Part shown: in pieces, positions 4,195-64,000 of the stretch | How the letters are laid out: every line of letters starts with the position of its first letter | How positions within the stretch are numbered: position 1 is the first letter of the stretch | From: a virus | Taxonomy: Duplodnaviria > Caudoviricetes | Length of the DNA stretch: 64,000 nucleotides | Strand: one strand, 5' to 3' | Virus record (IMG/VR): IMGVR_UViG_2708743157_000002 | Coordinates: 3,166-67,165 of that record | Notes under the pieces: model-generated | Seen by the model: the letters and a program-made list of their open reading frames with translations, nothing else | Told to the model about the DNA's origin: nothing | Database searches by the model: none | Position numbers and translations under genes: made by a program

Positions 4195-5595
4195 TTATTT
4201 ATTCTCTAGCGCTGTCAGGCGCTTGTTTATAGATTCGAGCTGTTGCGAAAGTGTCGATATATCCACCGTAGCCGTACCGACCTTGATGCGCTTCAGCTTT
4301 GCGAAGTCAGATGCGCTCATTAAGCCGTCCGTTGTTTCGGTAGCCAGCGAGACAGAAACTTGACCGTCAGGCCCTAATACGATACTCGCCAGCTTCACGT
4401 AGTCCGACGAACTCATAAGCCCGTCCGTTGTTGCGTTTGCCCGGCCGTACGTAGGAATTGTCAGCTTTGTCGGATCATACCCGTCTTCGTAAATCGCGTC
4501 TTTTCCGATGGTTATGTTTCCGCTTATGGCGCTGCCTTTCACCTTTCCGGTCGACGTATCGATAAGCTTAGAGACGGAGCTTTGTCCCCGCCCTAATTTA
4601 GCAGTTGTTTTTTTGATATTCGCCCGAACCTTTCCGAAAGTAAAAACCGGAGACTTTTTAGGATCTGAATAAGACTCCACACTGACTACACGCAGCTTCG
4701 TCTTCAAATCAAAGGGCTCTAATACGCACCATACATAATCGCCTTTGCGAATATCCTGCATGTTTAATTGTTTAACCTCTATATACGTAAGGCTGATAGA
4801 GATTTCAATTTTATCGGTCAGTTCTTTTTCTAACCGTTTTTCGAGCTTTCCCTCATCCTTTGCTGTGTACGAGTCATCAAAAATGGGATTTGCATGTTTG
4901 ATCCCATAGACTGAAGCTAATGGACTTGTGTACTCAGCTTCCACCGCGTATTTTCCTGTCTTTTCGTCCTTCTTTCCGAATCCTTTAATGTACGTTTTTA
5001 TAGAAGAGGTGTCTATTTCCTGAGAAGGGTCTTTTACATTTACACGGTCGCGGATGATGTAGTCTGTGTCTCGCGCTATCTCCTTCGCGAAATAGACTTT
5101 CTTCCCAATGCACTCATATTCAGCCGAATACTTTTCCTTTATATCGCTTAGTAATCCGAGAGAGTAGCCATTTCCAAAATCCTCCACTTCAAACGAATCA
5201 CCTAGCCCTTCCGGTAAAACCTCGTAAGAATACCCAGAACCCTTTAATGCGATGTCCAGCATATCCTCGATGTAAAGTTTTTTCTTTTTCCCGGATGTTT
5301 CATATACGTAATTCTCACCGAGATCCGAAAAGGAACGTTGCAAGGCCGTGATATCGACCTTCAGTCTCTTGCCGCTAATAGGAACATACCGCGTTTTCCT
5401 AATGACGAATTCCTCGTCTTCATAAAAAAGGGAACCTTCATTTTGAATTAACGGGAAAGAGTGCGCGTTTCTGTCCGTCTCCCAAACCGTTACGTCAATA
5501 GACCTACCGTTCTCAATTTCATCTTTCTTAGTTACGTTGAAGTCCGTTAATGCTTCGACTTGATTAGCGAGATTTTTTACAAGCAGACTCGACAT
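4195..5595 (-). CDS. Tal / prophage tail endopeptidase-family baseplate hub
   Basis: Position after Dit; TYIKGFGK...EYTSPLA..YG motif; two C-terminal T.DGLMS.SD..KL repeats. Confidence 0.85.
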   Translation of the reverse strand: MSSLLVKNLANQVEALTDFNVTKKDEIENGRSIDVTVWETDRNAHSFPLIQNEGSLFYEDEEFVIRKTRYVPISGKRLKVDITALQRSFSDLGENYVYETSGKKKKLYIEDMLDIALKGSGYSYEVLPEGLGDSFEVEDFGNGYSLGLLSDIKEKYSAEYECIGKKVYFAKEIARDTDYIIRDRVNVKDPSQEIDTSSIKTYIKGFGKKDEKTGKYAVEAEYTSPLASVYGIKHANPIFDDSYTAKDEGKLEKRLEKELTDKIEISISLTYIEVKQLNMQDIRKGDYVWCVLEPFDLKTKLRVVSVESYSDPKKSPVFTFGKVRANIKKTTAKLGRGQSSVSKLIDTSTGKVKGSAISGNITIGKDAIYEDGYDPTKLTIPTYGRANATTDGLMSSSDYVKLASIVLGPDGQVSVSLATETTDGLMSASDFAKLKRIKVGTATVDISTLSQQLESINKRLTALENK

Positions 5596-28544: not shown

Positions 28545-28724
28545 ATGGAGGAAAAATACGAGACTAACGGCATTGATACGTCGATCACTTACGAATACAA
28601 GGAATTTCCGGACAAGCGCGCAGGACGGTGTGATAACTGCGACTATACGCTGTTCAAAAGTTCGGTGAAGAGCGGGAAGTTTTTGCGCGAATGTAGAAGA
28701 TGCGGAATGAAAAAGAATATATAA
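28545..28724 (+). CDS. Small zinc-finger protein (59 aa, GRCDNC..FKSSVK.G...RECRRCGMKK)
   Basis: Manually translated; RBS ggagg; extended -10 TGGTATAAT upstream. Confidence 0.75.
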   Translation: MEEKYETNGIDTSITYEYKEFPDKRAGRCDNCDYTLFKSSVKSGKFLRECRRCGMKKNI

Positions 28725-28738
28725 AAGAGGTGTATCGT

Positions 28739-29095
28739 TTGGACTTATTACAAGAAATCATTCAATTTCGAGAAAGAGAGCAATCGGTTAACAAAACGGC
28801 GTATGAGCAAGACGGCGGAAGAAATCCAGGAGCGATTATCGCATATAAACCTATTGGAGATTCGAGACACCGTTTTCTAGGAATCAATCTTCACGGATGG
28901 AACATTTCCGTGGAAGAAGAAGAAAAAAGTGTAACTGCGACTGGTGAGGTTACCGAAAGACGTAAGGTTATTGAGAGAAGAAAATTAACTGACGAGGATG
29001 TTGTCAATCTTATTAACAGCCACGATTTCACCCTACAAGAAATGAATAGATTATTAAATAGATTTAAAGCTTCCGGTATATTTAAAGAAAATTAA
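28739..29095 (+). CDS. Hypothetical protein
   Basis: Start refined to TTG after RBS agaggtg. Confidence 0.6.
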   Translation: MDLLQEIIQFREREQSVNKTAYEQDGGRNPGAIIAYKPIGDSRHRFLGINLHGWNISVEEEEKSVTATGEVTERRKVIERRKLTDEDVVNLINSHDFTLQEMNRLLNRFKASGIFKEN

Positions 29096-37647: not shown

Positions 37648-37720
37648 TAACTGCGCATTAACTTCCGCCTTGGCACAACGTCTTCATAAATAACTGCGAA
37701 TCCACTCCGGAAATTGGACG
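37648..37720 (-). promoter_or_regulatory. Two tandem copies of a phage-specific 30-bp promoter-like motif
   Basis: TGTGCC...CGCAGTTA (37648..37677) and CGTCC...CGCAGTTA (37691..37720). Confidence 0.7.
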
Positions 37721-37721
37721 C

Positions 37722-48126: not shown

Positions 48127-49411
48127 AGCGCGCCTCGACTGGCGTGATAAGGATTACTCCCTCTGTATCGGGGCGCGCGTAATCTCCGTTCGGTAGCTGA
48201 ACGCCATAAAATTGAGTACCGATGAAATCCATTATTCCAAGAACTCCATCACTCTCGCTGAGTTGGACAACATCGCCCTTCTTATATTCGCCAACCTTGC
48301 GTCCGATCTTCGCCCACTTCGCTTCTTCGGCTTGCTTGCGCTCGATCTCGGCGGCTTCCTCTTCGGATAAAATTTCGAGCTGATCTGGCGTTGCGAATCC
48401 GAAGCCTCCTAAGCAGTCTCCGCCTTCGATTCGAATGCGTTTGCCTCTCTTATGGTCGAAATTATTATCGTAAACATGGTAAATCTTACCATTCTCAAAC
48501 CCGTTTAGAGGGTACGCCCCGCCGCCCGAAAGCAATCGCACTTTTGCGCCTTTTTTAAATTTAGCGCGTGCTGCTTCGTCTTTAGCTTCGGCAACTTCTT
48601 CGTCAGTGGCGCGGACGAGCTCACGTTTCGGGACGTATTGACTTTTTCCGTCTGCAAGCCTGCGGGCAAGTTCATTATACGACGATCCAAAACGGTCTCC
48701 GATTATTTCAACGATATCTCCGTCAGTGAAGCGATGGTAATCGGTAGCATTAACCACCTTCGCATAATCACCGACCTTCAGGCGCTCAGGCTTCGGCTCA
48801 GCCTCTACGCTTGTGGCGCTTACTTTGCGGTAGACTTCGAATTCGTCATCGCACAGCACTTGTGTATCAAATTCGTCCCCATCGTCGTCAGTAATCCATG
48901 GATCTCCTTGCAAATCAACATAATCAATTTCGTAATACTTGCCCGAGGTTAGATAGCGTTTAGGAGCCTCATCGAACTTAATATAATCGCCATCCTGCGC
49001 TTCGCTTTTGTCAATCCGCTTATATTCCGCCTCACCCTTCAGCGCGGCCACGTCGGATTTTAACGATTCGATTTCGCCTTCCGCGCTGCTGACGCGTTCT
49101 TCTAATGACGGATTGGTGCTGACGGATACTTTGCGGAAGAGTACGCTCCCCGAATCATACAACGCTGTACTGTGCCCATCCCCGACATCATCTCGAACTG
49201 TTTCCCAGCCGTAGTCCTCGTCGATTACTATTTCGTAAAACGCGCCGACAGTTAAGTCGGCGCGTTTTCGATCATTAAGTACCAGATCGCCGACACTTCC
49301 GAATTCTTTAGCTCTCCCTTCCACGCGCTCGTAAACCGCCCCGCCATACGCAACCTTCGTAATTTCACCGTTCACCATATCGAGTGTCTTAACGCCGTTT
49401 AATTTCGCCAT
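48116..49411 (-). CDS. Phage protein with multiple SH3/KOW-like repeats
   Basis: Repeated (L/F/Y)K.GD.V.V units. Confidence 0.7.
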   Translation of the reverse strand: MAKLNGVKTLDMVNGEITKVAYGGAVYERVEGRAKEFGSVGDLVLNDRKRADLTVGAFYEIVIDEDYGWETVRDDVGDGHSTALYDSGSVLFRKVSVSTNPSLEERVSSAEGEIESLKSDVAALKGEAEYKRIDKSEAQDGDYIKFDEAPKRYLTSGKYYEIDYVDLQGDPWITDDDGDEFDTQVLCDDEFEVYRKVSATSVEAEPKPERLKVGDYAKVVNATDYHRFTDGDIVEIIGDRFGSSYNELARRLADGKSQYVPKRELVRATDEEVAEAKDEAARAKFKKGAKVRLLSGGGAYPLNGFENGKIYHVYDNNFDHKRGKRIRIEGGDCLGGFGFATPDQLEILSEEEAAEIERKQAEEAKWAKIGRKVGEYKKGDVVQLSESDGVLGIMDFIGTQFYGVQLPNGDYARPDTEGVILITPVEARFDR

Positions 49412-49846
49412 TTATACCGCCTCCGATTCGTTAATTTTCGTTATCTCTACGTCTTCGCGCCGAAAGTTCAAATCCATCCGAACCCACCGCTTTCCGTCCT
49501 TCGACTGCGGCCCCCAATACTCGGTAAGCTCGCGGTTCTCGAACATCCACACGGTAGGCACCGGATCGCGTCCGATAAGCACGCCGATAAAGTAATCGAC
49601 CTCATCGAGCTTATACGGTGTCCGGTCACTTTTCCGAGCCTGAACGATGAGGCTGCCGCGCTTCTTCCGATCATAAATCGTCTTCACCTGAAACGTTTTC
49701 CACTCGCCACTCAACGGATCTTTTGCGCTAATATCGAATGCCTCTTCCGTTTCGGACGTACTGACCGCCTGCCAGCCGCTAGCCAGCAGCGCAGCACGAG
49801 CGATCAGTTCCGAATACTTGCCGGTATCTTCTGCTTTATGCGCCAT
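49412..49846 (-). CDS. PD-(D/E)XK endonuclease
   Basis: G..SE.IA...L...GW.V, FDI, FQVKT, Y...EVDYF. Confidence 0.75.
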   Translation of the reverse strand: MAHKAEDTGKYSELIARAALLASGWQAVSTSETEEAFDISAKDPLSGEWKTFQVKTIYDRKKRGSLIVQARKSDRTPYKLDEVDYFIGVLIGRDPVPTVWMFENRELTEYWGPQSKDGKRWVRMDLNFRREDVEITKINESEAV

Positions 49847-49882
49847 ATAAGCGCCTCCTTTTCGTTTGATTGGTTGACGTGA

Positions 49883-50638
49883 TTAGAACGGTAATTCTTC
49901 GGAAGTAGGTTCGTTAGAGTCTGCCGCTTCTTTAGTCGCCGGAACTGGCGGTAACTTAGCGCGATCAATCTTCGCTTCTTCGTCAGCCTCGTGTAGTAAT
50001 CCGATGATGTCGGCTTCTTCACGGAAGTTAGCGAGCTCTTCGTATCCGTAATCAATTCCGATAAACTTTTTCGCTTCAGCCAACTGTTCTTCTGTCGCGT
50101 CTCCCGACTCAATAGAGAACGTTTTGTCTACCTTCTTGATATGAATCGCCTCTCCTACGAGTGAGTAATCCGGATTAAATTTGCGACCCATCTTTTCGGC
50201 TTTGTCATAGTCGGCTACAAGGTTGTTGATATGGAAATCCTTCGTATCAATTACGCGATACGTTTTGTATTCGAGATCGTAAACTGGAATCATTGCGTAA
50301 AGCTTACGCGGCGCTCCGACTAAGCAAGACGGACAAACTTTCGGGTTTGGCTTTTTAAACGCACCGTGATCTGGTCGGATTGCTTTCGGCGAGTGCAGAC
50401 AAGTATGTTTACGGAAGTGGTAAATATTTCTCTGGCCGTTGTAAGTGCTTTGTTCGTGAACATAATACGCAAACCAATCGTCCGGATCTGCGAGAATAAC
50501 GAATGTACGACCTTCCTCGTTTACTTCTCCGTGCTTACCCATGCGAACATATCGCGTTACACCTTCCGGAAATTCGCCCCCTGATTGCGCTGCTTCACGC
50601 TGTGCCTCACGTTGTTTCAAAGTATCTCTTAAGCCCAT
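49883..50638 (-). CDS. ssDNA-binding protein (gp32-like, Zn-binding)
   Basis: YYVH, KHTC...CPSC, acidic C-terminus EELPF; start refined to MGLRDTLK. Confidence 0.75.
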   Translation of the reverse strand: MGLRDTLKQREAQREAAQSGGEFPEGVTRYVRMGKHGEVNEEGRTFVILADPDDWFAYYVHEQSTYNGQRNIYHFRKHTCLHSPKAIRPDHGAFKKPNPKVCPSCLVGAPRKLYAMIPVYDLEYKTYRVIDTKDFHINNLVADYDKAEKMGRKFNPDYSLVGEAIHIKKVDKTFSIESGDATEEQLAEAKKFIGIDYGYEELANFREEADIIGLLHEADEEAKIDRAKLPPVPATKEAADSNEPTSEELPF

Positions 50639-50784
50639 TCGTTTTCCCCCTACGTTTTTATTAAGGCTTTTCGCCCTCGCAAAATGCCGGTGTCTGCGCC
50701 CGAAACGCCGCCAGCGCTTGGCAGTAGCGACGCGACACGGATTACCTAACGGCCGCCCCGACATTCTCCGAGGACGCGACGCGC

Positions 50785-50883
50785 CTATGATGCGTCGTCT
50801 TCGCCCGCTTGCGTCCACATGCCGAACAGTATTAATACGATGATGACGGTGGCAATCGGTCCCACCCACGAAAGATCAGACAT
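50785..50883 (-). CDS. Small single-TM peptide (32 aa)
   Basis: MSDLSWVGPIATVIIVLILFGMW; RBS aaggag. Confidence 0.5.
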   Translation of the reverse strand: MSDLSWVGPIATVIIVLILFGMWTQAGEDDAS

Positions 50884-51442
50884 ATGCCGCAACTCCTTTC
50901 TCAATCGATTCAATTTCGGATTTAATAGCGTTAGCTTTTTCATTAATTGACGCGTATTCAGAACGAGCAACGTCAATCTTTGCGTCAATGACTGCGATAA
51001 TCTTATGCGCGCGAGCTTTTGCGCGATTTAATTCGAGTTGCGCAATTTCGAGGTTCTTTTCCGCTAGCTGAATCGTTAAGCTTCGCAATTCTCGTTTATG
51101 GCGGACAATAAGTACGTCAGACTTTCGTTTAAGTACCGTCTTGAGTTCGTCAGGCAACTCGGTAATCAGCGGTGTACTTGCGGGCGGGCTATCTTCGACT
51201 GGCGCCAAAGGATCGGCCATCTTGTAGACGGTCACTACTCGAATACCATCGACGATCAATCGTGTTCTTGATTTAATATGATCGAACGCTTTTGTTCGAT
51301 GGCCCTGTTCGTTGCTGAGATCGCCTACATAGAAAGCCGTTTGCATTAAATTCCTAATATGCCCGGCGGCTTGTGGGCGACTTATCCCTAATCGTTCTAC
51401 CGCACGATCAACGGCGTGTCTTGTGACCTCGTAATGTTTCAT
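50876..51442 (-). CDS. Hypothetical protein with RelE-like N-terminus and coiled coil
   Basis: VTRHAVDRAVERLG...VVTVY. Confidence 0.65.
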   Translation of the reverse strand: MKHYEVTRHAVDRAVERLGISRPQAAGHIRNLMQTAFYVGDLSNEQGHRTKAFDHIKSRTRLIVDGIRVVTVYKMADPLAPVEDSPPASTPLITELPDELKTVLKRKSDVLIVRHKRELRSLTIQLAEKNLEIAQLELNRAKARAHKIIAVIDAKIDVARSEYASINEKANAIKSEIESIEKGVAAYV

Positions 51443-51600
51443 CCGACGCGCACCGCCTTAATCGGGGTTGCCGGTAGATAGTCGGCCGGATCTTCGTCGT
51501 GCGGCCATGCGCCATGGTAAACAAAATCGGTGAGTTTGCGCTCGTCTAGCGCTAAAAGCGTTTGAGATTCGTTAAATGTGGGTAAAATCGATGTATGCAT
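51439..51600 (-). CDS. Small hypothetical protein (53 aa)
   Basis: Manually translated MHTSILPTFN...; RBS ggagg; ATGA overlap. Confidence 0.55.
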   Translation of the reverse strand: MHTSILPTFNESQTLLALDERKLTDFVYHGAWPHDEDPADYLPATPIKAVRVG

Positions 51601-51743
51601 AGTACGTTAGCCTCCGTTATTTTAAGGATAATCGCACTAGGCCGAGGACATGTTCGCATCATTGTTCCCTTGAATTTGTTGACAATATGCAATACAATGA
51701 GGACGTAGCAAAGTCCTTCGGGCCTAGCTGCGTAAAGCGTGTG

Positions 51744-52379
51744 TTACACAGATAGAAAAGCGTTAAGTTCGCCGTGGTGAGAAGCGTCGAAATTTTTCGC
51801 TAAACCTTTGATTACACGTTCTACTTTTTTGTAATGGACGCCTACCTTACTGCCTATCGAAGCGTATGTAGGTCGTTCGCTTGCAAGATGCTCCTTAACG
51901 ATTGCAGTCGTTAGTGAGCAGGAATTTTCCGTTAGGGCCTGGATAAGTTGCAGCTTATCTTGGTCCGTTTTTATTTCTCCATCAATCATCGCAATTACGT
52001 GATCCTCCATTAGATCGTCGGAATCAGATTCGAATGTTGCAGCATTCTCTTCCGCCGAAGCATCTAACAGTACCCGTTTCTTTGCATAAGTCCCATTTTT
52101 CATTCGCGTTACATCGATTGCTGCTCGCGAAAGATGGAGCTTAAAATGGCCGACCACTTCTCTCGATCGAGTCTTATCGAACTTTTCAACGATCCACCAC
52201 ACCTTCTCGTTCAACTCGCTTACAATTTCATCGAACAAGATCGGACACCCTCGACCATATTTTCTAGCGAGATTCCGAACTAGCGGCCGGAAGAATTCAA
52301 AAACCTCATTGAACGAGTTTTGATCTCCTTTTTCTCGAAAATCATCAATCAAGATTATTAAGTTTTCATTATTTTGCAA
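51744..52379 (-). CDS. Phage sigma-factor-like transcription regulator
   Basis: Region-2-like GDQNSFNEVFEFFRPLVRNLARKY...VEKFDKTR; C-terminal HTH TYASIGSKVGVHYKKVER; start refined to TTG 52379. Confidence 0.75.
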   Translation of the reverse strand: MQNNENLIILIDDFREKGDQNSFNEVFEFFRPLVRNLARKYGRGCPILFDEIVSELNEKVWWIVEKFDKTRSREVVGHFKLHLSRAAIDVTRMKNGTYAKKRVLLDASAEENAATFESDSDDLMEDHVIAMIDGEIKTDQDKLQLIQALTENSCSLTTAIVKEHLASERPTYASIGSKVGVHYKKVERVIKGLAKNFDASHHGELNAFLSV

Positions 52380-52400
52380 TGTGATTTCCCCTTTCAATAT

Positions 52401-52430
52401 TAACTGCGAATGCACATATCAAGATGGACA
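52401..52430 (-). promoter_or_regulatory. Phage-specific 30-bp promoter-like motif upstream of the sigma gene
   Basis: TGTCC-17 nt-CGCAGTTA. Confidence 0.7.
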
Positions 52431-52506
52431 CATTCAGAAAAGATTTTTTTATTATTTTCTTCCATGACCATATATTAGCATATATATTTTGAAGTTATTT
52501 GAAAAG

Positions 52507-52550
52507 GAACAAGATTGTAAATTTACAGATATGTTCAAACATGTAAACAT
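52507..52550. promoter_or_regulatory. Overlapping palindromic operators upstream of the sigma gene
   Basis: GAACA-N4-TGTAAATTTACA-N4-TGTTC (52507..52536) and ATGTTCAAACATGTAAACAT (52531..52550). Confidence 0.6.
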
Positions 52551-52577
52551 AAAAAGAGGCCTGTTTGATACAGGCCC
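52551..52577 (-). terminator. aimP terminator
   Basis: ggcctg-tatcaaa-caggcc followed by tcttttt. Confidence 0.85.
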
Positions 52578-52587
52578 TTAGAAATAA

Positions 52588-52701
52588 TTATCCCCCTATT
52601 GCGTTTATTGCTACCTCCTTGCTGCCCTCATTAGCATTAAGCGCAAGCACTCCTGACACCAAAGCTACACACATTAAAGCAACAAATAAAATCTTCTTCA
52701 A
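52588..52701 (-). CDS. aimP: Arbitrium pre-pro-peptide MKKILFVALMCVALVSGVLALNANEGSKEVAINAIGG; predicted mature peptide INAIGG
   Basis: RBS aagggag, MKK plus hydrophobic signal peptide, EVA then a hexapeptide ending GG, terminator, directly after aimR. Confidence 0.9.
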   Translation of the reverse strand: MKKILFVALMCVALVSGVLALNANEGSKEVAINAIGG

Positions 52702-53863
52702 AAACAACATCTCCCTTTTCTACAGTTTTTAGGTTTTCTGTAAGGGTCTTGACAAAGTCGCTGTTCTCCCCGGACTGAATCATATCCCTTACAATAATAA
52801 CTGCGAAGAAAAGATTAGAAGTGGACACCAACTCGCAAAACTTTTTGTGTCTTTTTTCTTTTCCGCAACACGATTCGAAATATGTAGTCAGATCAGGATC
52901 GCCCATTTCTAAAATTGCTTCTTGAGCTTTATCCTGACTAATCTCATTATTACGAAACTTTTGAACAGCAAGAAGTGGTCTAGGCGCGTTGTCATCGATG
53001 CTACGGGACATCAGAATTTTCGCGAAATTGTAATTGTAGTATGCATACCCCTCTAATCTAGCTATCCCTGTTTCTTTCGCTGCGGATAAACTGCGCTGTA
53101 AGTAGTGGAGGCATAGTTCTTCATCATGCAGTAAATTAGTCATTCCCAGAATATAAAGAGCGTCAGAGTCGACTCTTTTGTTAATTTTAGCATTTAGTAA
53201 GATGTGTGAATAGTGCCTTGCTTCATCTAAATTATTCATAAATAGATGGGTAAATGCTAATACCTCTGAAACTCTGTACAGATAACATTCCTTTTCGAAT
53301 AATTGAGTTTTCTCGCTCATCTTTCGGATACGCTTCTCAATTTCAGAAGCCTTTGCGAGCACGTAGGAAAATTCTCGTCTTTGTAGTAAAGAAATACACT
53401 CATATATTTCAATTAGAAGCTTAAGTTTGGGGTTTTTAAGAGTTGTGAGTTTACCGATCTCATCATCGATCTCATAGAAGCTAATATCTCCTTTCATGTA
53501 ATCACGGATGAATGTGTAAACCTTGATGTATTTCTCTACAGTGGATTTCTTTTCATCTTGATATTTTTTTATATGCCTATCCAGCAGTTCTATATTTCTT
53601 GTAATAGCCGCATATTCAAATAAATTACGGATACAGTCGTCGCTATCTAGTAAATCGTACCAATTGGAGATGTGTTCAGAGTATTTGTTGCCATCAACTA
53701 ACTGTGTAAGAATAAGCAAACTTCTAAAAGTCAATTCGCGATCACCGTTCCGCAGGTTTCTAACCTGTTTCCCTCCCACTTTCAAATGTCGAGCAAGATC
53801 ATCGTCTGTAATGTCATCCCTGTCTTCTATACTATTAAACAAAAAATCCCGAACGGAATCCAT
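52637..53863 (-). CDS. aimR: AimR arbitrium receptor (HTH plus TPR, RRNPP family)
   Basis: N-terminal XRE-like HTH, FEYA...R..ELL motif, TPR-like helices; adjacent secreted peptide gene. Confidence 0.9.
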   Translation of the reverse strand: MDSVRDFLFNSIEDRDDITDDDLARHLKVGGKQVRNLRNGDRELTFRSLLILTQLVDGNKYSEHISNWYDLLDSDDCIRNLFEYAAITRNIELLDRHIKKYQDEKKSTVEKYIKVYTFIRDYMKGDISFYEIDDEIGKLTTLKNPKLKLLIEIYECISLLQRREFSYVLAKASEIEKRIRKMSEKTQLFEKECYLYRVSEVLAFTHLFMNNLDEARHYSHILLNAKINKRVDSDALYILGMTNLLHDEELCLHYLQRSLSAAKETGIARLEGYAYYNYNFAKILMSRSIDDNAPRPLLAVQKFRNNEISQDKAQEAILEMGDPDLTTYFESCCGKEKRHKKFCELVSTSNLFFAVIIVRDMIQSGENSDFVKTLTENLKTVEKGDVVFEEDFICCFNVCSFGVRSACA

Positions 53864-53891
53864 GTAATTTCACCCCTATTTGAATTAATGA

Positions 53892-53955
53892 ATGACTTTT
53901 ATCTATTCGTTAAGTATAATTGAAGTATAATAAAAATGTTTAGACGTGTAAACAT
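53892..53955 (+). promoter_or_regulatory. Promoter of the XRE genes with a downstream palindromic operator
   Basis: ATGACT-17-TATAAT; ATGTTTA-GACGTG-TAAACAT at 53936..53955. Confidence 0.65.
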
Positions 53956-53976
53956 TTATTTAGGAGGATTTTTAAA

Positions 53977-54186
53977 ATGGTCGATTTTTCCCCATTGTTC
54001 AAAACCTTAGAAGAAAAAGAAATGAACCTGAGCGACCTCAGACAGGTCATAAGCTCACGCACCCAGACCAGTATTAAAGAAAACCACATGCAAGCGAATT
54101 TAAAAATGTACATAGGCACTTTGGAAAAAATTTGTTTATTCCTTGATGTCCCGGTTGAAAAAGTCATTAGAATTGTTAAAGAATGA
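53977..54186 (+). CDS. XRE/Cro-like HTH regulator
   Basis: DFSPLFKTLEEKEM..SDL...TLEKICLFLDVPVEKVI. Confidence 0.88.
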   Translation: MVDFSPLFKTLEEKEMNLSDLRQVISSRTQTSIKENHMQANLKMYIGTLEKICLFLDVPVEKVIRIVKE

Positions 54187-54245
54187 TCTAATGGAAATTA
54201 ATACTTAATTAAGATAAAATATTACGGACACCTTTACGAATGGAG

Positions 54246-54485
54246 GTGTTTGTTACGTTTAAGGTCGGCAAATGTCGGATACCCGAACTATGCAAGAAAC
54301 GCGGAATTAGTCTCAGTCAACTCGCAGCAATGGTCGGAGTATCAAAAACGCAAATGTCTGATTACGTCAGCCTTCGGAATCTGCCGAGCATCGAACGAAC
54401 CTACAATATCGCGATGATGCTCAGCTGTGCGCCCGAAGATCTGTACGAATGGATTGAGGTATCCGACAGCAACACGGAGGGTTAA
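54246..54485 (+). CDS. XRE-family HTH repressor
   Basis: KRGISLSQLAAMVGVSKTQMSDY...PSI...IAMMLSC..EDLYEW. Confidence 0.88.
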   Translation: MFVTFKVGKCRIPELCKKRGISLSQLAAMVGVSKTQMSDYVSLRNLPSIERTYNIAMMLSCAPEDLYEWIEVSDSNTEG

Positions 54486-54501
54486 TACAACCTCCGCCGA
54501 C

Positions 54502-55497
54502 CTAAAGTACGGGAATTCCCGAACCTAAACGTAAAGTATCTCTCACGACCTCCGCACGATCATACACGTCTCGCAACGCTTCTGTACCGCGCTTTATAAG
54601 TAGTTCATCAGCGTCTTTCACCTCCGTAATATAACCGTGCGCAAGCCGCACCTTTCCGATCAAATAACGCTCAATCTCCCGCCGTAACTTTTCGCCAGCT
54701 TTGTCGTTATCTGTAACCACCGTTAAATATTCGATGGGTGACTGCGCAATTATGTCCGCCTTTTGTAAATTAAATGTGCTGCCGCCGGTTCCGATCGCCG
54801 GTATTCCCGCTGACCGCCACGCCATAGCATCGATCTCGGCCTCGCATATCACTGCGCTTTTAAGCCGCTGCGCATACACGATATCCATTCCGTAAACTAA
54901 ATACCGGATAGGCATGCCGCCTTTTACGTACCAGAACGCCTTCCCCTTCGTTGCCCTATACTTAACGTTAGCCAGCCGCCCGTTAGGAAGCCGCCAAGGA
55001 ATCGCGACTGCATTTCCCGCAAGCGCTACGCCGGCCTCTTCTTGTACCGCGCCCGCAATGCCCCGGCCCGTCAGGTAAGCGTTAGGCCCCAGCGTTGTGT
55101 CAACGAGGACCGATTCCGCTAAAGGTTCCGGCTTCGTGACGGCCTTTAATTTCGGAAGTCGCAGCGCCATACGCCCGCCTTCAGCCGCCGGTGCATACGT
55201 TTCCAATAAGTAATCGATTGCGTCGTCTTCGGTTTCGCCACGCAGGAAAGCGAGCAGTTTAACGAACCCGCCTCGCGCAAATTCTTCATCATAGGCGCCC
55301 GAGTCGCCCCAATAGCCGGCTTTTGCCGACGCTGTGTCTTCGAGGTATACGTAAAAGCTCGGAGTCCGATCGTATCTGAATGGACTGGCGGCCAGTAGGC
55401 GTTCATCGCCCCACGTCGGCCGGGTCCAGTCGAATTGTTCGAGTTCATACCGAATGTCGACGTCTACAAAACGTCCATTCAAAGTTAATATCGGCAA
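54502..55497 (-). CDS. DNA primase (TOPRIM)
   Basis: SPFR.D..PSF, YL..RGI, ICEAEIDA, TDNDKAG, KDADE. Confidence 0.9.
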   Translation of the reverse strand: MPILTLNGRFVDVDIRYELEQFDWTRPTWGDERLLAASPFRYDRTPSFYVYLEDTASAKAGYWGDSGAYDEEFARGGFVKLLAFLRGETEDDAIDYLLETYAPAAEGGRMALRLPKLKAVTKPEPLAESVLVDTTLGPNAYLTGRGIAGAVQEEAGVALAGNAVAIPWRLPNGRLANVKYRATKGKAFWYVKGGMPIRYLVYGMDIVYAQRLKSAVICEAEIDAMAWRSAGIPAIGTGGSTFNLQKADIIAQSPIEYLTVVTDNDKAGEKLRREIERYLIGKVRLAHGYITEVKDADELLIKRGTEALRDVYDRAEVVRDTLRLGSGIPVL

Positions 55498-55631: not shown

Positions 55632-57026
55632 TTAGAAACCGAACTGAGCCGCAGCCCCGACGCCTGTTTCCGGCTGTTTTACGACGCCTATTTGCGGCAG
55701 GTAGATAATCTCGGCGACTTCTCCTTCGCCGCCGTCTCGCCCTTTATTCAATCCGATCAAGCCGCGTCCTTCTTTGGCGTTCGTATCAACCGCGATCAAT
55801 GTTGCCGCATCATGAAGCAAAGCCTTCGTTTTAGATACGGCCTTTCTTTGCGGCAAATTAAGTTCGCGACTACCGTCCTCTTCCCTTTTTTCGTCATCCT
55901 CATCGGCTTGTGTGATCGCAAAAATCGTTGCTTTCGTAGTCCCAGCCAATCTCCGCAATTTTTTCGAAGTCTCAGCAGCGTCTCCACCGGCCGTCTTTGA
56001 TGTATTACGTTCATAATCGAGATAGTAGAAAGGATCTACGAGTACCACATCGGCTTTTGTTTCAATGATATCCGACTTTAAATCTTGCAAAGAACGGGAA
56101 TAAAAATCTTCGTCGTCCACGCCCCTAACCGTAATGTTACCCGGAATGATTTCGTTAAGACGCTCAAGGAATTCCATAAACCCCGCTTCGAACTCTTCAG
56201 ACAGCTTTGCGTACTTTACGTCTTGCGAATTAAAGCCAGCTTCCATATCGACACCGTCCAGAGTCGCAGTCGTAACACCCATGGTTCCGGAAATTGACAC
56301 GTAGAGACGCACCAATACTTCGTACCAGCCCATTTCCATCGACCATATCAGAACGTTCGCCCCCTGCAGCGCACAGTTAGTGACCTCCTCTAATGATACG
56401 GCCGATTTACCCCGTCCCGACTTTCCATAGATCACGTACACGTTAGACGAAACATAGCCGCCCATAGCTCGATTAATAAAATCGAATTTACTGCGCCAGA
56501 TCCGGAAGGACTCGCCCGCCTTGCGGTTTCCATATTCCGTTTTAAACTTGTCGATGTCTCGTTTGATATCCGTTCCGACTGAGTTTCGAACGTTTGTTCT
56601 CATTTTAAGACTTTCGGCCTGCCCCGTCAACCACTCGAAGAAATTTCCCATATCACCGCTTTTTTGCGCTTCAATAAATCGTTTTTCGAGCTGCGGCTCC
56701 TGAACTTGGCGATTGGTTTCCGGATCAATACGGCCGTTCATCAGCTCGATAAACTCGCGCTCGGCCGCCCGATCCTTGAGATTTTTCGCAAGATAATCGT
56801 AGCTCGCCTCGATATTAAAATCCGGCTGGAAGTCCGGCACCTCATTTGCGACCATCTCGGCCGTCGGCGCTTGGCCTCGGTATTTCTCCGCGTAATCCAT
56901 GACGTACCGGAAAGCCTTGCGCTCACCCTGCGTTTGAAAGTCGGCTTCCGAAACATTGAATCGCAGCAGGGCGTTCGGGTCGTTCGCTTCGATGGCTTTC
57001 GATATTAGTAAAGTTCCGTAGTTCAT
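55632..57026 (-). CDS. DnaB-like replicative helicase
   Basis: GKSGRGKS Walker A, WSMEM, VLVDP, AITQA, KGRDG. Confidence 0.92.
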   Translation of the reverse strand: MNYGTLLISKAIEANDPNALLRFNVSEADFQTQGERKAFRYVMDYAEKYRGQAPTAEMVANEVPDFQPDFNIEASYDYLAKNLKDRAAEREFIELMNGRIDPETNRQVQEPQLEKRFIEAQKSGDMGNFFEWLTGQAESLKMRTNVRNSVGTDIKRDIDKFKTEYGNRKAGESFRIWRSKFDFINRAMGGYVSSNVYVIYGKSGRGKSAVSLEEVTNCALQGANVLIWSMEMGWYEVLVRLYVSISGTMGVTTATLDGVDMEAGFNSQDVKYAKLSEEFEAGFMEFLERLNEIIPGNITVRGVDDEDFYSRSLQDLKSDIIETKADVVLVDPFYYLDYERNTSKTAGGDAAETSKKLRRLAGTTKATIFAITQADEDDEKREEDGSRELNLPQRKAVSKTKALLHDAATLIAVDTNAKEGRGLIGLNKGRDGGEGEVAEIIYLPQIGVVKQPETGVGAAAQFGF

Positions 57027-57247
57027 TCGCCCACCTCCTTCCGGTTTTTACGAAAGAAAATCCGTTTAACTAGTGCTCTTACTCCTAACGCAATCCCTTC
57101 CGCCGTATATAAAGCGCCTTCCCCGATATAGTAAATCGCGACTAGTGGTAAGTATATCGGGAATAGGACGAAGAAGATCACGTTTTCTATGCGGACCTGT
57201 TTAGCCCACTCTTCATCCGTATAAACGTATCTAATTCTGCGCTTCAT
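57023..57247 (-). CDS. Small membrane protein
   Basis: Hydrophobic segment; coupled to the helicase gene. Confidence 0.55.
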   Translation of the reverse strand: MKRRIRYVYTDEEWAKQVRIENVIFFVLFPIYLPLVAIYYIGEGALYTAEGIALGVRALVKRIFFRKNRKEVGE

Positions 57248-57756
57248 TCGCTCGCCTCCCGTCTCAATTTCGCCATCACAGCGTCAGCCTTCGTTTTATA
57301 CTCCGCACCCCCGAACGTCTCGTATAGGCGCATGTTATCGTTGTATTCGTCCAGCAACCCGTCGATTTGTTTCGCCTCTTCCTCCGCTTTCTTTTTCGTC
57401 ACATCACTCGCCACCTTTTCGAGTCCTTTACCTAACTCCGCGACACTTTCTACGCTTGGCAATTTCGGAAAATAGTCCGCAAAATGAAACGCCGCGCCCG
57501 TCGGCTCCGGATAATTCGTCACATCGTACGTTAAGAGGTAATCTTCCGCAAACTGTTTCCGGCAGACCAGCCGCAGATCCGTTTCGAACGCGTCGAGGAA
57601 TTCACCGTTAATCGCGTCAGTCAGTTCGAACTCGACGTATTCACTTACGCCCCACTCATCGGTTTCCTTTACTTCGCGCCAAGCATCGACGTAGAATATC
57701 CGATTTTCATACCCGGCAACCGAGACGATATCTCCGAAGGTGAATTCCGTTTTCAT
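57244..57756 (-). CDS. Hypothetical phage protein
   Basis: F.FGDIV.V N-terminus; IDGLLDEYND...Y..FG..EY C-terminus. Confidence 0.7.
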   Translation of the reverse strand: MKTEFTFGDIVSVAGYENRIFYVDAWREVKETDEWGVSEYVEFELTDAINGEFLDAFETDLRLVCRKQFAEDYLLTYDVTNYPEPTGAAFHFADYFPKLPSVESVAELGKGLEKVASDVTKKKAEEEAKQIDGLLDEYNDNMRLYETFGGAEYKTKADAVMAKLRREASE

Positions 57757-62823: not shown

Positions 62824-62913
62824 TAACTGCGTATCGACTTCCGGATTGGCACAAATTTTCACCGAAATTTATTCCGTCACTATTAACTGCGAATGCGCTT
62901 CGGAAAATGGACA
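62824..62913 (-). promoter_or_regulatory. Two tandem copies of the phage-specific 30-bp promoter-like motif
   Basis: TGTGCC...CGCAGTTA (62824..62853) and TGTCC...CGCAGTTA (62884..62913). Confidence 0.7.
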
Positions 62914-62941
62914 AAAAAAATAACCCGGCCTTGTGGCCGAG
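62913..62941 (-). terminator. Integrase terminator
   Basis: ctcggcc-acaa-ggccggg followed by tta and tttttttt. Confidence 0.8.
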
Positions 62942-64000
62942 TCATTGTCTCCGAGTTTTCCGTTTCTTATTTTTATTTTCTTGTATCTGAAGTAACGGCG
63001 AGTGCTTACTATGCTCCTTGGTCAGCGCCTTTTTGGATAGGTGCGTATATCTTTGCACCATACGCATATCGCTATGTCCGAGTATCACCTGTAAATGCCG
63101 AATGTCTCCACCGTCCTCTAAAAACATCGTCGCGCCCGTATGTCGTATTAAATGGGGATGAACGCGCTTTTTGATGCCGGCCCTATCTGCGTAGTTATTC
63201 AGACGCTGCCTAAAGTTATTAGTCGTCATCTTCTCGCCATAGTTTGCCAGAAAAACATATTCACTATCGAATTCTTCGTTTTCTCTTATAAGTTCGCGCA
63301 GCAGTCGAAGTGTTTTATCCTCTAACGGTACGAATCTTCCCCTTCGATTCTTTACGTCTTTCCCTTCGAGTATCAACGTTTTGGAGCCGAAATCAATACT
63401 CGACTCTTTAATCGACAACACTTCGCCTACCCGCATCATAGAGTCGATGAGGCAAGTCAGCGCAACATAATCTCTAAATTCAACGAAAGATCGCTGATCC
63501 ATCGCATTAAGAATCGCCCGCATCTCATCAGGAGAAAGGATATTTATCGGGCTCTCCGGGTTCGTGATTAACGTAACCTCTTCGAACGGGTTATCGTCGG
63601 CATACGCCTCTTTAATTGCAAAACGAAAGAACGTCCGTATGGTCTTAATATAGTCGTTAACTGACCGCGGAGATAACCCCTGCGTCTTATGTTCGTCCAA
63701 TTTGAAATTATGGCCGTCGAACTTTATTTTATCGTTAATCAGCCACGATACGAACCCGCGCGCAAAGTCAACGTCAATGTGGCGTATGTCTGCGGACACT
63801 CCGATCTCCTCAGCATAATCCGACAAATACCGACAAGCACGCATGTACTTATCAATCGTTTCCTGAACGACATTCTCAGCGCGTTTGGCATCGCACAGTC
63901 TATCGAATATGTATTCGAGATCGTACGTACCTTTTCGCGTTGTCTTTACCGAGGCCCTTCCGGCCTTCACACGCTTACCTTTTCGATTTTCTGAATGCAT
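62942..64000 (-). CDS. int: Tyrosine integrase/recombinase
   Basis: MRVGEV, K.RR.R.VP, HPHLIRHT, ILGH.D..M..RY; N-terminal SAM-like domain; the start lies at the window edge. Confidence 0.93.
   Translation of the reverse strand: MHSENRKGKRVKAGRASVKTTRKGTYDLEYIFDRLCDAKRAENVVQETIDKYMRACRYLSDYAEEIGVSADIRHIDVDFARGFVSWLINDKIKFDGHNFKLDEHKTQGLSPRSVNDYIKTIRTFFRFAIKEAYADDNPFEEVTLITNPESPINILSPDEMRAILNAMDQRSFVEFRDYVALTCLIDSMMRVGEVLSIKESSIDFGSKTLILEGKDVKNRRGRFVPLEDKTLRLLRELIRENEEFDSEYVFLANYGEKMTTNNFRQRLNNYADRAGIKKRVHPHLIRHTGATMFLEDGGDIRHLQVILGHSDMRMVQRYTHLSKKALTKEHSKHSPLLQIQENKNKKRKTRRQ

Follow-up and report, generated by a model that had tools for sequence, protein, structure and literature searches.

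A phage sigma factor gene as a probable output of an arbitrium receptor

The stretch of DNA considered here (the window; 64,000 nucleotides (nt)) comprises bases 3166-67165 of the 67,165-base IMG/VR provirus record IMGVR_UViG_2708743157_000002, which CheckV rates as complete. Its genes are read on the minus strand and its content is that of a temperate siphophage. Positions 51744-54500 hold an arbitrium pair – the peptide receptor gene aimR and the pre-peptide gene aimP – and, directly downstream and in the same orientation, a gene for a sigma-70-family factor of 211 amino acids (aa). A reading made from the sequence alone (the sequence-only reading) had listed aimR, aimP, a terminator, a palindrome of 30 bp, an extended -10, a box shared with a second promoter, a copy of a phage-specific promoter motif and a co-oriented sigma gene; every one of these elements was found where it had been placed (Table 1). 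Here we describe the locus and its relatives, and argue that the gene under the arbitrium receptor may well be this sigma factor.

The arbitrium pair and the sigma gene

In addition to its Pfam match, the aimR product matches PHROG 1728 (E 2.1e-59) and solved AimR chains (E 6.6e-6 to 2.5e-3), the best of these being phi3T AimR (5zvw_A, E 6.6e-6). Pfam, PHROG and the solved chains together identify the N-terminal helix-turn-helix (HTH) and TPR-like repeats of an arbitrium receptor. Judged by its sequence, the protein is remote from the SPbeta/phi3T clade (clade 2), so its operator could be spaced differently from those of phi3T and SPbeta.

The aimP open reading frame (ORF) has 40 codons, or 37 if counted from a TTG start. 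Among lineages the AimP C-termini are AINAIGG, AINIIGG, AINKIGG and AANQLGG, all of the form xNxxGG, and they vary along with the type of AimR. Its position, its N-terminus and this lineage-specific C-terminus mark aimP as a probable pre-peptide gene. A hairpin and T run follow aimP in every lineage, with stems that differ in sequence.

The sigma protein matches the PHROG class 'RNA polymerase sigma factor' (E 9.8e-4). Its profile finds SigB (8x6g_H) in the PDB at E 0.004; a single-sequence search of the PDB gave E 0.13 at best. A structure model built with 22 homologues has a mean predicted local distance difference test (pLDDT) score of 70.3; averaged in blocks of 10 residues the score is 82-93 for residues 1-90, and it drops below 50 for residues 99-135. 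Domain-wise alignment of model residues 4-96 to domain 2 of Staphylococcus aureus SigB (8x6g_H) gave Z 14.8 and a root-mean-square deviation of 1.5 A over 92 of 96 residues, and among the matches listed sigma domain 2 was present in 50 of 50. The Pfam, profile and structural matches thus agree on a sigma domain 2. Some homologues carry the database name 'region 4 domain-containing'.

Table 1. Features of the locus and of related sites in the window (positions as in the window; ~ marks predicted starts)
Feature	Position	Strand	Basis
aimR, arbitrium peptide receptor, 408 aa	52637..53863	-	Pfam AimR PF22871, E 2.1e-21, 76.8 bits (cut-off 26.7)
aimR promoter-like site, TTTACA-17-TATACT	53924..53952	-	Consensus scan alone
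aimP, pre-peptide, hydrophobic N-terminus, C-terminus ...EVAINAIGG	52588..52710	-	ORF reading and lineage comparison
Intrinsic terminator after aimP, stem 52577..52557 then T run	52550..52577	-	Terminator scan
Putative AimR operator, GAACA-N20-TGTTC	52507..52536		Palindrome scan and conservation
P1, extended -10 TGCTAATAT, predicted start ~52466	52472..52480	-	TGnTAnTAT kept in 20/20 sequences, 26-27 nt after operator
A-rich leader	52380..52465	-	No conserved ORF; no Rfam match
P2, sigma-type motif GTGTCCA-N16-CGCAGTTA	52401..52431	-	Motif scan; CGCAGTTA ends 21 nt before the sigma TTG
Sigma-70-family (ECF-like) gene, 211 aa from conserved TTG	51744..52379	-	Pfam Sigma70_r2, 26 bits against a cut-off of 24
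Motif copy GTGTCCA-N16-CGCAGTTA within aimR at its 3' end, ~90 nt before aimP	52798..52828	-	Repeat and motif scan, lineage covariation
Tandem motifs between integrase gene and first early gene: type A TTGTCCA..CGCAGTTA (62884-62914), type B TTGTGCCA..CGCAGTTA	62824..62914	-	Motif scan
Tandem type A (37691-37721) and type B motifs ahead of dUTPase/thymidylate synthase genes	37648..37721	-	Motif scan
81-aa XRE/HTH gene, convergent with primase gene	54240..54485	+	Pfam HTH_26 39.4 bits, HTH_3 28.1 bits
69-aa HTH gene, divergent from aimR, candidate repressor for TGTTTA-N6-TAAACA boxes	53977..54186	+	Pfam HTH_26 21.8 bits, just below the cut-off of 22
Sigma-A-type promoter of 69-aa gene, ATGACT-17-TATAAT, predicted start ~53927	53892..53920	+	Consensus scan; RNA contig starts
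Box 1, perfect TGTTTA-N6-TAAACA, overlapping -35 of aimR promoter-like site	53937..53954		Box scan
Box 2, minus-strand reading TGTTTA-N6-TGAACA; its right half doubles as the distal half-site of the long palindrome	52532..52549		Box scan
Candidate antisense RNA against 3' third of sigma gene	51670..51972	+	Promoter, hairpin, U run, RNA contigs
Integrase gene	62942..64000	-	
Sigma-region-4-only protein, 127 aa	31517..31900	-	Pfam sigma-70 region 4, E 3e-12

Conservation of the layout

A protein search with the sigma factor returned 25 homologues, all from the Bacillus subtilis group; sigma scans gave 2 loci from GTDB genomes and a further 15 from IMG/VR. With two GenBank phages these make 19 loci, and each of the 19 has an AimR homologue (43-98% identity) immediately upstream in the same orientation; the frame of the locus is the same throughout: primase, the 81-aa HTH gene, optionally the 69-aa HTH gene, AimR, AimP, sigma. 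The reverse scan, with an AimR alignment, recovered the same 15 IMG/VR contigs. When 91 family genomes were scanned with a profile, four gave a sigma match, two of them new and distant (G051 and G040). These two, and the more weakly related phage vB_BauS_KLEB27-1, carry primase, two HTH genes, a Pfam-AimR protein, a small ORF and sigma. A sigma gene downstream of AimR, which the sequence-only reading had singled out for a synteny survey, is found at all 19 loci and in KLEB27-1, G051 and G040; the layout is present in 23 of 23 loci holding a homologue of the window sigma. The types of AimR, of peptide and of the N- and C-terminal parts of sigma occur in differing combinations, the genes always remaining adjacent. 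In GenBank, the annotation of phage 268TH002 already labels AimR and sigma next to each other.

At two of the related loci (L004, a Bacillus halotolerans genome, and L019, an IMG/VR provirus), around 4990-5010, the sigma gene is split by a TAA at a poly-A run, with residues 1-74 and 68-211 matching separately; this may reflect a defective prophage or a sequencing error.

The interval between aimP and the sigma gene

Measured to the TTG at 52379, the gap is 208 nt long. The sequence-only reading had given about 170 bp, a figure that relied on a GTG at 52415; the GTG is unconserved, and it is the TTG, with a ribosome-binding site, that relatives conserve. Comparison of the gap covered 20 sequences (the window and the 19 related loci, L001-L019), of which 15 are distinct and which fall into seven lineages. 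All 20 display one composite pattern: GAACA-N20-TGTTC, 26-27 nt, TGnTAnTAT, 33-44 nt, a -35-like element, 16 nt, (C/T)GCA...TGA, 12-15 nt, TTG. Within it the spacer of the palindrome and the stretch from palindrome to -10 are held in length and free to diverge in sequence. The leader (the 33-44 nt between extended -10 and P2) and the distance from terminator to palindrome (18-28 nt by manual count) vary in length among lineages.

The first element of the pattern, present in 20 of 20 sequences, has the form expected of an AimR operator – two inverted boxes set apart by a long spacer and located 3' of aimP – its spacer falling 5 nt short of the length in SPbeta and phi3T. A scan of the 64-kb window gave a single occurrence against 0.08 expected; 7 of 100 shuffles had one or more. 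A motif in the HTH of AimR, (K/R)Q(V/L)xxL(R/K)xGxRxLT, is common to all lineages carrying the putative operator and is different in KLEB27-1, which is without it. The GAACA palindrome is absent from both KLEB27-1 and G040, though they keep the gene layout; G051 has GAACT-N20-TGTTC, then 27 nt and TGGTAATAT (read by eye). The second element, the extended -10 of the predicted promoter P1, has a poor -35; an extended -10 of the same type is found in KLEB27-1, G051 and G040 also.

The sequence-only reading held that the gap contains no ORF, no second terminator and no aimX. Taken literally, the first of these fails: ORFs of 32, 28, 23, 21 and 15 codons exist. None is conserved or preceded by a Shine-Dalgarno sequence. 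In the 32-codon ORF the conserved -10 block is read in one frame in the window and in a different one in relatives; the ORF of 23 codons is missing its ATG in three of seven lineages, and its frame is shifted by 1-nt poly-A indels between near-identical phages. On these grounds (missing Shine-Dalgarno sequences, differing frames and indels across the seven lineages) we rejected the small ORFs as genes. The other two statements hold. The aimP hairpin is the sole terminator-like site that the scan gave between aimP and sigma, and an Rfam search of 51400-54700 returned nothing at E up to 1. An aimX would be expected right after aimP as an ORF of 29-80 aa or a discrete small RNA; the gap offers no conserved ORF, second terminator or Rfam match of this kind, and the next conserved gene is that of the 211-aa sigma factor. 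From the small ORFs, their unconserved frames and indels, and the empty Rfam search, we conclude that, as far as sequence can tell, an aimX-like gene is absent from the gap.

Promoter motifs that vary with the sigma factor

The motif CCA-N16-CGCAGTTA has four matches in the window against 0.02 expected, all on the minus strand. These type A motifs (GTCCA-N16-CGCAGTTA) stand ahead of the sigma gene itself (P2), inside aimR ahead of aimP, at the early operon and at the dUTPase operon; at the last two only, a type B motif (TTGTGCCA-N15-CGCAGTTA) comes next in tandem. A relaxed scan (GTGTCC-N17-CGCA, 2 mismatches) gave 46 matches against 47 expected and was uninformative, hence the use of the tight pattern. 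In the complete genome of phi18-2 motif copies occupy the same six places (the tandem pairs at 28688-28850 and 52757-52840 of its record); all four type A copies read CGCATC(T/A)A, and both type B copies are still CGCAGTTA.

In each of the seven lineages the copy in aimR and the copy upstream of sigma share an identical -35 and an identical -10 variant. The -10 is CGCAGTTA in the window, L003 and L009, TGCAGTTA in L006, CGCATCwA in L001 and CGCAACTw in L015 and L018; forms that differ between lineages include CGCAGTTA versus CGCATCTA. The -35 is GTGTCC in five lineages, T(T/G)GCCAA in L009 and TGGCC in L018. Counted in this way, the sigma promoters have three types of -35 and four of -10. The three -35 variants pair with three types of sigma C-terminal HTH in seven of seven lineages, and the -10 variants track groups of the sigma N-terminal domain. 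Even the AimR residue encoded over the internal -10 (A-V/S/T-I-I) changes together with the -10 variant, in our own reading of the alignment. This concerted change of motif and protein is the best evidence here, albeit comparative, for a working sigma factor with a regulon of four promoters that would include those of its own gene and of aimP. The copy inside aimR, which the sequence-only reading had not reported, lies ahead of aimP, so the sigma factor should raise production of the signal as well.

The type B motif is unchanged between the window phage and phi18-2 and resembles the sigma motif of the L009 type; type A changes with the sigma factor of the phage in question. Type B may be a means of accepting different sigma cassettes, or a site for another factor. 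An exact scan for CGCAGTTAWWWWTGA in three related provirus records gave 1, 1 and 2 matches, too few to test this idea of tandem type B sites.

Small HTH genes and a shared box

Two small HTH genes lie upstream of aimR on the opposite strand. The 81-aa gene is found by tblastn in all 19 related loci; for the 69-aa gene tblastn found no copy in L003, L006, L007, L008 and L018. The sequence TGTTTA-N6-TAAACA (at most 1 mismatch) has two matches in the 64 kb, against 0.18 expected, and two were reached in none of 100 shuffles. One lies just downstream of the predicted start of the 69-aa XRE gene; the other shares a half-site with the putative AimR operator, so a repressor bound there would shut out the protein that binds the palindrome. 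Each locus has exactly two boxes in the four lineages with the 69-aa gene (4/4), and none in the three lineages without it (3/3). The palindrome GAACA-N20-TGTTC itself, in a scan of the window, is absent from the promoter region of the XRE genes.

The aimR promoter-like site and the XRE promoter overlap head-on at 53913-53952: they face each other on opposite strands, and about 10 nt separate their predicted starts. As judged from this overlap, the two promoters are probably mutually exclusive.

RNA contigs and a candidate antisense RNA

RNA was examined over 8.5 kb as Logan contigs, unstranded and from four runs of one study; they come from a prophage about 96-97% identical to the window, the contigs being mostly 95-99% alike. 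We take them as hints and not as transcript mapping. No cover was present over 49284-51555 in the four runs, and 55816-57500 had almost none (depth at most 1.05, in one run); given these silent and nearly silent parts, the covered parts are not DNA carry-over.

Contigs begin at 53926 or 53927 in all four runs, 7 nt after the -10 of the predicted XRE promoter. The upper ends of aimR contigs (53923, 53872 and 53866) fit the predicted aimR start poorly; contigs of aimR-aimP end at 52591 or 52592 in two runs. One contig (51990-52466, depth 7.85) links the leader to the sigma ORF and stops at the predicted P1 start. The contigs of the four runs leave 52467-52590 uncovered, a gap in cover that carries no weight as evidence.

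A further element, also beyond what the sequence-only reading had noted, is a conserved promoter and terminator directed against the sigma gene. The promoter, TTGAAT-17-TACAAT (51670-51698, plus strand), keeps its TTG and TAnnAT in eight of eight aligned sequences within diverged surroundings. The hairpin at 51935-51966, followed by UUUUU at 51968-51972 on the same strand, is kept in seven of seven lineages, one stem pair being G-U, U-A or C-G. The deepest contigs lie here (51604/51610-51972, and 51718-51972 at a depth of 642); contigs end in the U run, at 51972, in three of four runs, and adapter or ribosomal RNA chimeras occur at 51972 in three runs. We read the element as a putative antisense RNA, ~270 nt long and opposed to the final third of the sigma gene, its strand being inferred; it appears abundant in the lysogen.

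In one run a single contig (53927-55518, plus strand) begins at the predicted XRE start, crosses both XRE genes and runs antisense along the full length of the primase gene. In the lysogen, convergent transcription opposing the replication operon may account for it.

Setting of the cassette

The gene order along the minus strand is integrase, early genes, DnaB, primase, the cassette of aimR, aimP and sigma, and a DNA-binding protein, followed by DNA polymerase, ribonucleotide reductase, dUTPase, ThyX, a protein with sigma region 4 only, and structural genes. Between sigma and the DNA-binding protein stand genes for a 53-aa and a 188-aa protein. The named phages nearest to the window are the Bacillus phages 268TH002, 268TH007 and phi18-2, with ~70% identity across the region; the announcement of the first two describes both as temperate and leaves arbitrium undiscussed (PMC9476937).

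The G+C content is 34-42% within 51744-54500, about 45-56% on either flank and ~50% for the genome. Among relatives the parts of the cassette are reshuffled: peptide and AimR type, sigma N-terminal type, sigma C-terminal type, and presence of the 69-aa HTH gene. The composition and the reshuffling suggest a module gained and swapped through recombination.

The 127-aa region-4 protein, encoded after a methylase gene and present in phi18-2 as GP85, is a second sigma-like protein, and may be a regulator of late genes.

A sigma factor under arbitrium control

The interpretation developed here has its basis in anatomy, conservation and covariation; every binding and regulatory step is drawn from comparison and none from experiment. 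Peptide-free AimR would bind GAACA-N20-TGTTC just after the aimP terminator, allowing RNA polymerase to reach the sigma gene. AimR would do so chiefly by aiding host sigma-A polymerase at P1, 26-27 nt downstream, and possibly by suppressing the aimP terminator as well. The sigma factor would then read four promoters: that of its own gene (self-amplification), the one within aimR (aimP, hence more signal), that of the early/replication operon and that of the nucleotide-metabolism genes. Imported AimP peptide would remove AimR from the DNA. Where present, the 69-aa XRE protein would bind the box that shares the distal AimR half-site and the box at the aimR promoter, and on account of these two positions would oppose AimR. 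In lysogens the putative antisense RNA, directed at the 3' part of the sigma gene, would probably damp sigma.

On balance we favour the view that AimR controls sigma expression from the operator site and that sigma is the pro-lytic effector. It seems similarly probable, from the same comparisons, that the gene under the arbitrium receptor is the phage's own extracytoplasmic function (ECF)-like sigma factor, and not a small aimX, the whole forming a self-contained lysis-or-dormancy cassette among the replication genes of a temperate Bacillus siphophage. Several proposals of the sequence-only reading are in keeping with this. Amplification by sigma of itself and of the replication genes is borne out, at the level of motifs, by P2 and by the same motif at the head of the early/replication operon. 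An operator shared with the XRE promoter is indeed what the two boxes amount to, 52532..52549 and 53937..53954 being their only matches in 64 kb; opposition by the XRE protein is likewise suggested by the overlap with the distal operator half-site and by boxes that occur only with the 69-aa gene (4/4 against 0/3 lineages). The proposal that AimR switches on sigma fares less simply. The putative operator does lie 26-27 nt from an extended -10 in 20 of 20 sequences; activation, however, is not the sole reading, as the AimRs that have been studied antiterminate and the layout from terminator to operator is the same. Activation is favoured, as far as sequence goes, by the fixed distance to a conserved extended -10 whose -35 is poor; the published mechanism and the phi3T-like distance between terminator and operator point, by analogy, to antitermination. 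Both may operate.

A number of observations weigh against control of sigma by AimR in the form just proposed. AimR of phi3T and of SPbeta are antiterminators of the terminator just upstream of the binding site, with no promoter after the site (PMC10769878). The window shares with phi3T the word GAACA/TGTTC, but everted, and its half-site centres are 25 bp apart against 31. P2 lies downstream of the terminator, so sigma could run free of AimR once any sigma has been made. All loci are on one phage backbone (primase, XRE genes, AimR, sigma), and strict co-occurrence could for this reason be inheritance and not function. A whole-chain Foldseek search of the sigma model gave no match at E 0.001 or better (best 1.7e-3), the top rows being nearly all sigma factors; confidence is low over the model's C-terminal half (pLDDT 55-80), which has no Pfam region-4 match. 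The RNA contig ending at 52466 occurs in one of the four runs, and the data are unstranded and from one study.

The strongest rival to control through P1 is that AimR acts purely as an antiterminator of the aimP terminator, with read-through into sigma from the aimR promoter or from the sigma-type promoter inside aimR, and that P1 is weak and independent of AimR. The phi3T and SPbeta precedent just cited speaks for it, as does the identical order of aimP, terminator and operator, with 19 nt between the last two in the window, 18-28 nt among lineages and 18 nt in phi3T. It is made rather unlikely by the extended -10, which stands at a fixed 26-27 nt from the operator in every lineage while the terminator-to-operator distance varies by 10 nt, and which phi3T lacks after its operator. 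As a hint only, one RNA contig ends at the predicted P1 start and none bridges the terminator.

Alternatively, AimR and sigma could be neighbours that are not wired to one another: another protein would occupy the palindrome, sigma would be controlled by the XRE proteins, P2 and the antisense RNA, and AimR would act elsewhere. Inheritance of the linkage on one backbone would allow for this, and KLEB27-1 and G040 retain the layout without the GAACA palindrome. We consider it improbable nonetheless: the 20-nt spacer is like that of AimR sites and unlike small XRE dimer sites, the palindrome does not recur in the XRE genes' own promoter region and is retained in lineages that lack the 69-aa XRE gene, and the types of AimR, peptide and sigma are reshuffled yet stay adjacent. 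That a hidden small aimX peptide or RNA in the 208-nt gap is the real effector is highly improbable: ORFs of 15 to 32 codons do exist there, and AimX proteins as short as 29 aa are given in a recent survey (bioRxiv 10.1101/2025.11.23.689978), but the ORFs are without a Shine-Dalgarno sequence and are read in differing frames through the conserved block, the 23-codon ORF lacks its ATG in 3/7 lineages and suffers 1-nt poly-A indels, and the gap shows neither second terminator nor Rfam match and is crossed by one RNA contig from the leader into the sigma ORF.

If AimR does control sigma, lysis commitment and signal output could form one loop, since sigma itself would drive the peptide gene. More tentatively, and short of what we would call probable, the block of XRE repressor(s), AimR, AimP, sigma and antisense RNA could be an exchangeable decision cassette in which a peptide gates a self-amplifying sigma factor, sigma and its promoters co-evolving as orthogonal pairs on a backbone that accepts cassettes. 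The tandem promoters of two types at the early and nucleotide operons are the reason for thinking that the backbone can accept cassettes with different sigmas. Were the proposed wiring true, a sigma output would be a fourth arbitrium design, one that couples a quorum signal directly to polymerase specificity; positive feedback would be built in, and the lytic regulator would govern production of the signal. The layout, with sigma in the usual place of the small aimX gene, points to a link, so far undescribed, between signalling among phages and the choice of lysis or dormancy. The sigma-promoter pairs, each specific to its lineage, would also make a natural toolkit of orthogonal parts for transcription, and the system is directly testable in Bacillus subtilis with the isolated phages 268TH002, 268TH007 and phi18-2.

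Comparison with known systems

With SPbeta and phi3T the window shares an AimR-family receptor, a pre-peptide gene, an intrinsic terminator and an inverted two-box repeat with a long spacer. In published AimR operators two inverted 6-bp boxes stand 25 bp from each other on the downstream side of aimP (ATCACT in SPbeta, ATGTTC in phi3T), an architecture stated there to be without counterpart in other solved protein-DNA complexes (PMC6458997); the spacer in the window is 20 nt as against 25 nt. In the phi3T record aimP is followed by a terminator, 18 nt, AAGTTC-N25-GAACAT and the aimX ribosome-binding site. The distance from terminator stem to operator is thus closely similar (19 nt in the window, 18 nt in phi3T), and this distance matters in phi3T and SPbeta (PMC10769878). 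After the operator the two differ: the window has a conserved extended -10, whereas in phi3T the operator abuts the aimX ribosome-binding site. The output gene differs too, being a 211-aa sigma factor in the window and a 51-aa AimX or small RNA in phi3T and SPbeta. SPbeta has a sroA-F (yopM-yopR) operon with an integrase-like repressor; these are not among the downstream genes of the window, where no dedicated search for sro proteins was made.

In extended arbitrium systems (phi106, phiW23) a small single-HTH gene, aimC, lies directly downstream of and opposite to aimP and is paired with a second, divergent HTH gene, and AimX has 29-80 aa (bioRxiv 10.1101/2025.11.23.689978). The window is like these systems (aimC, aimL) in placing an arbitrium pair beside small HTH regulators and early/replication genes, and in that AimR would turn on a pro-lytic factor. 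It departs from them in that the downstream gene is a co-oriented sigma and the two small HTH genes are upstream of aimR; neither aimC nor aimL is recognizable on these terms. The same survey sorts 9300 AimR homologues into SPbeta-like, 'extended', 'RP' and 'other' layouts, and a search of its text gave no occurrence of 'sigma'. Three routes from peptide signal to lysis are described there, through an RNA (SPbeta), a MazE-like antitoxin (phi3T) or a small antirepressor (extended systems); the 'RP' and 'other' systems have neither SPbeta-like nor extended neighbours, and for them the sections consulted describe no output (bioRxiv 10.1101/2025.11.23.689978). The layout of the window would fall under 'RP' or 'other'. 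A description of AimR wired to sigma was not found in full-text searches of the literature on arbitrium or AimR and sigma, in which the 'sigma' matches checked were suppliers' names or unrelated, although Stokar-Avihail 2019 or the supplements of the survey might list the layout.

The candidate antisense RNA is like lambda OOP in being a short antisense transcript over the 3' end of the gene of a decision regulator. OOP is an antisense RNA against cII; the target in the window would be a sigma factor, and the likeness is based on a conserved promoter and terminator and on unstranded RNA contigs.

ECF sigma factors commonly autoregulate, and their promoters have the form -35, 16-17 nt, CGT. Like ECF (group 4) sigmas, the window sigma is a short two-domain protein with a confident domain 2, its motif has the form -35, 16 nt, CGCA, and a copy of that motif stands ahead of its own gene. 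It differs from them in having no anti-sigma gene evident beside it and no Pfam region-4 match; the window sigma is apparently controlled by a peptide receptor together with an XRE repressor and antisense RNA.

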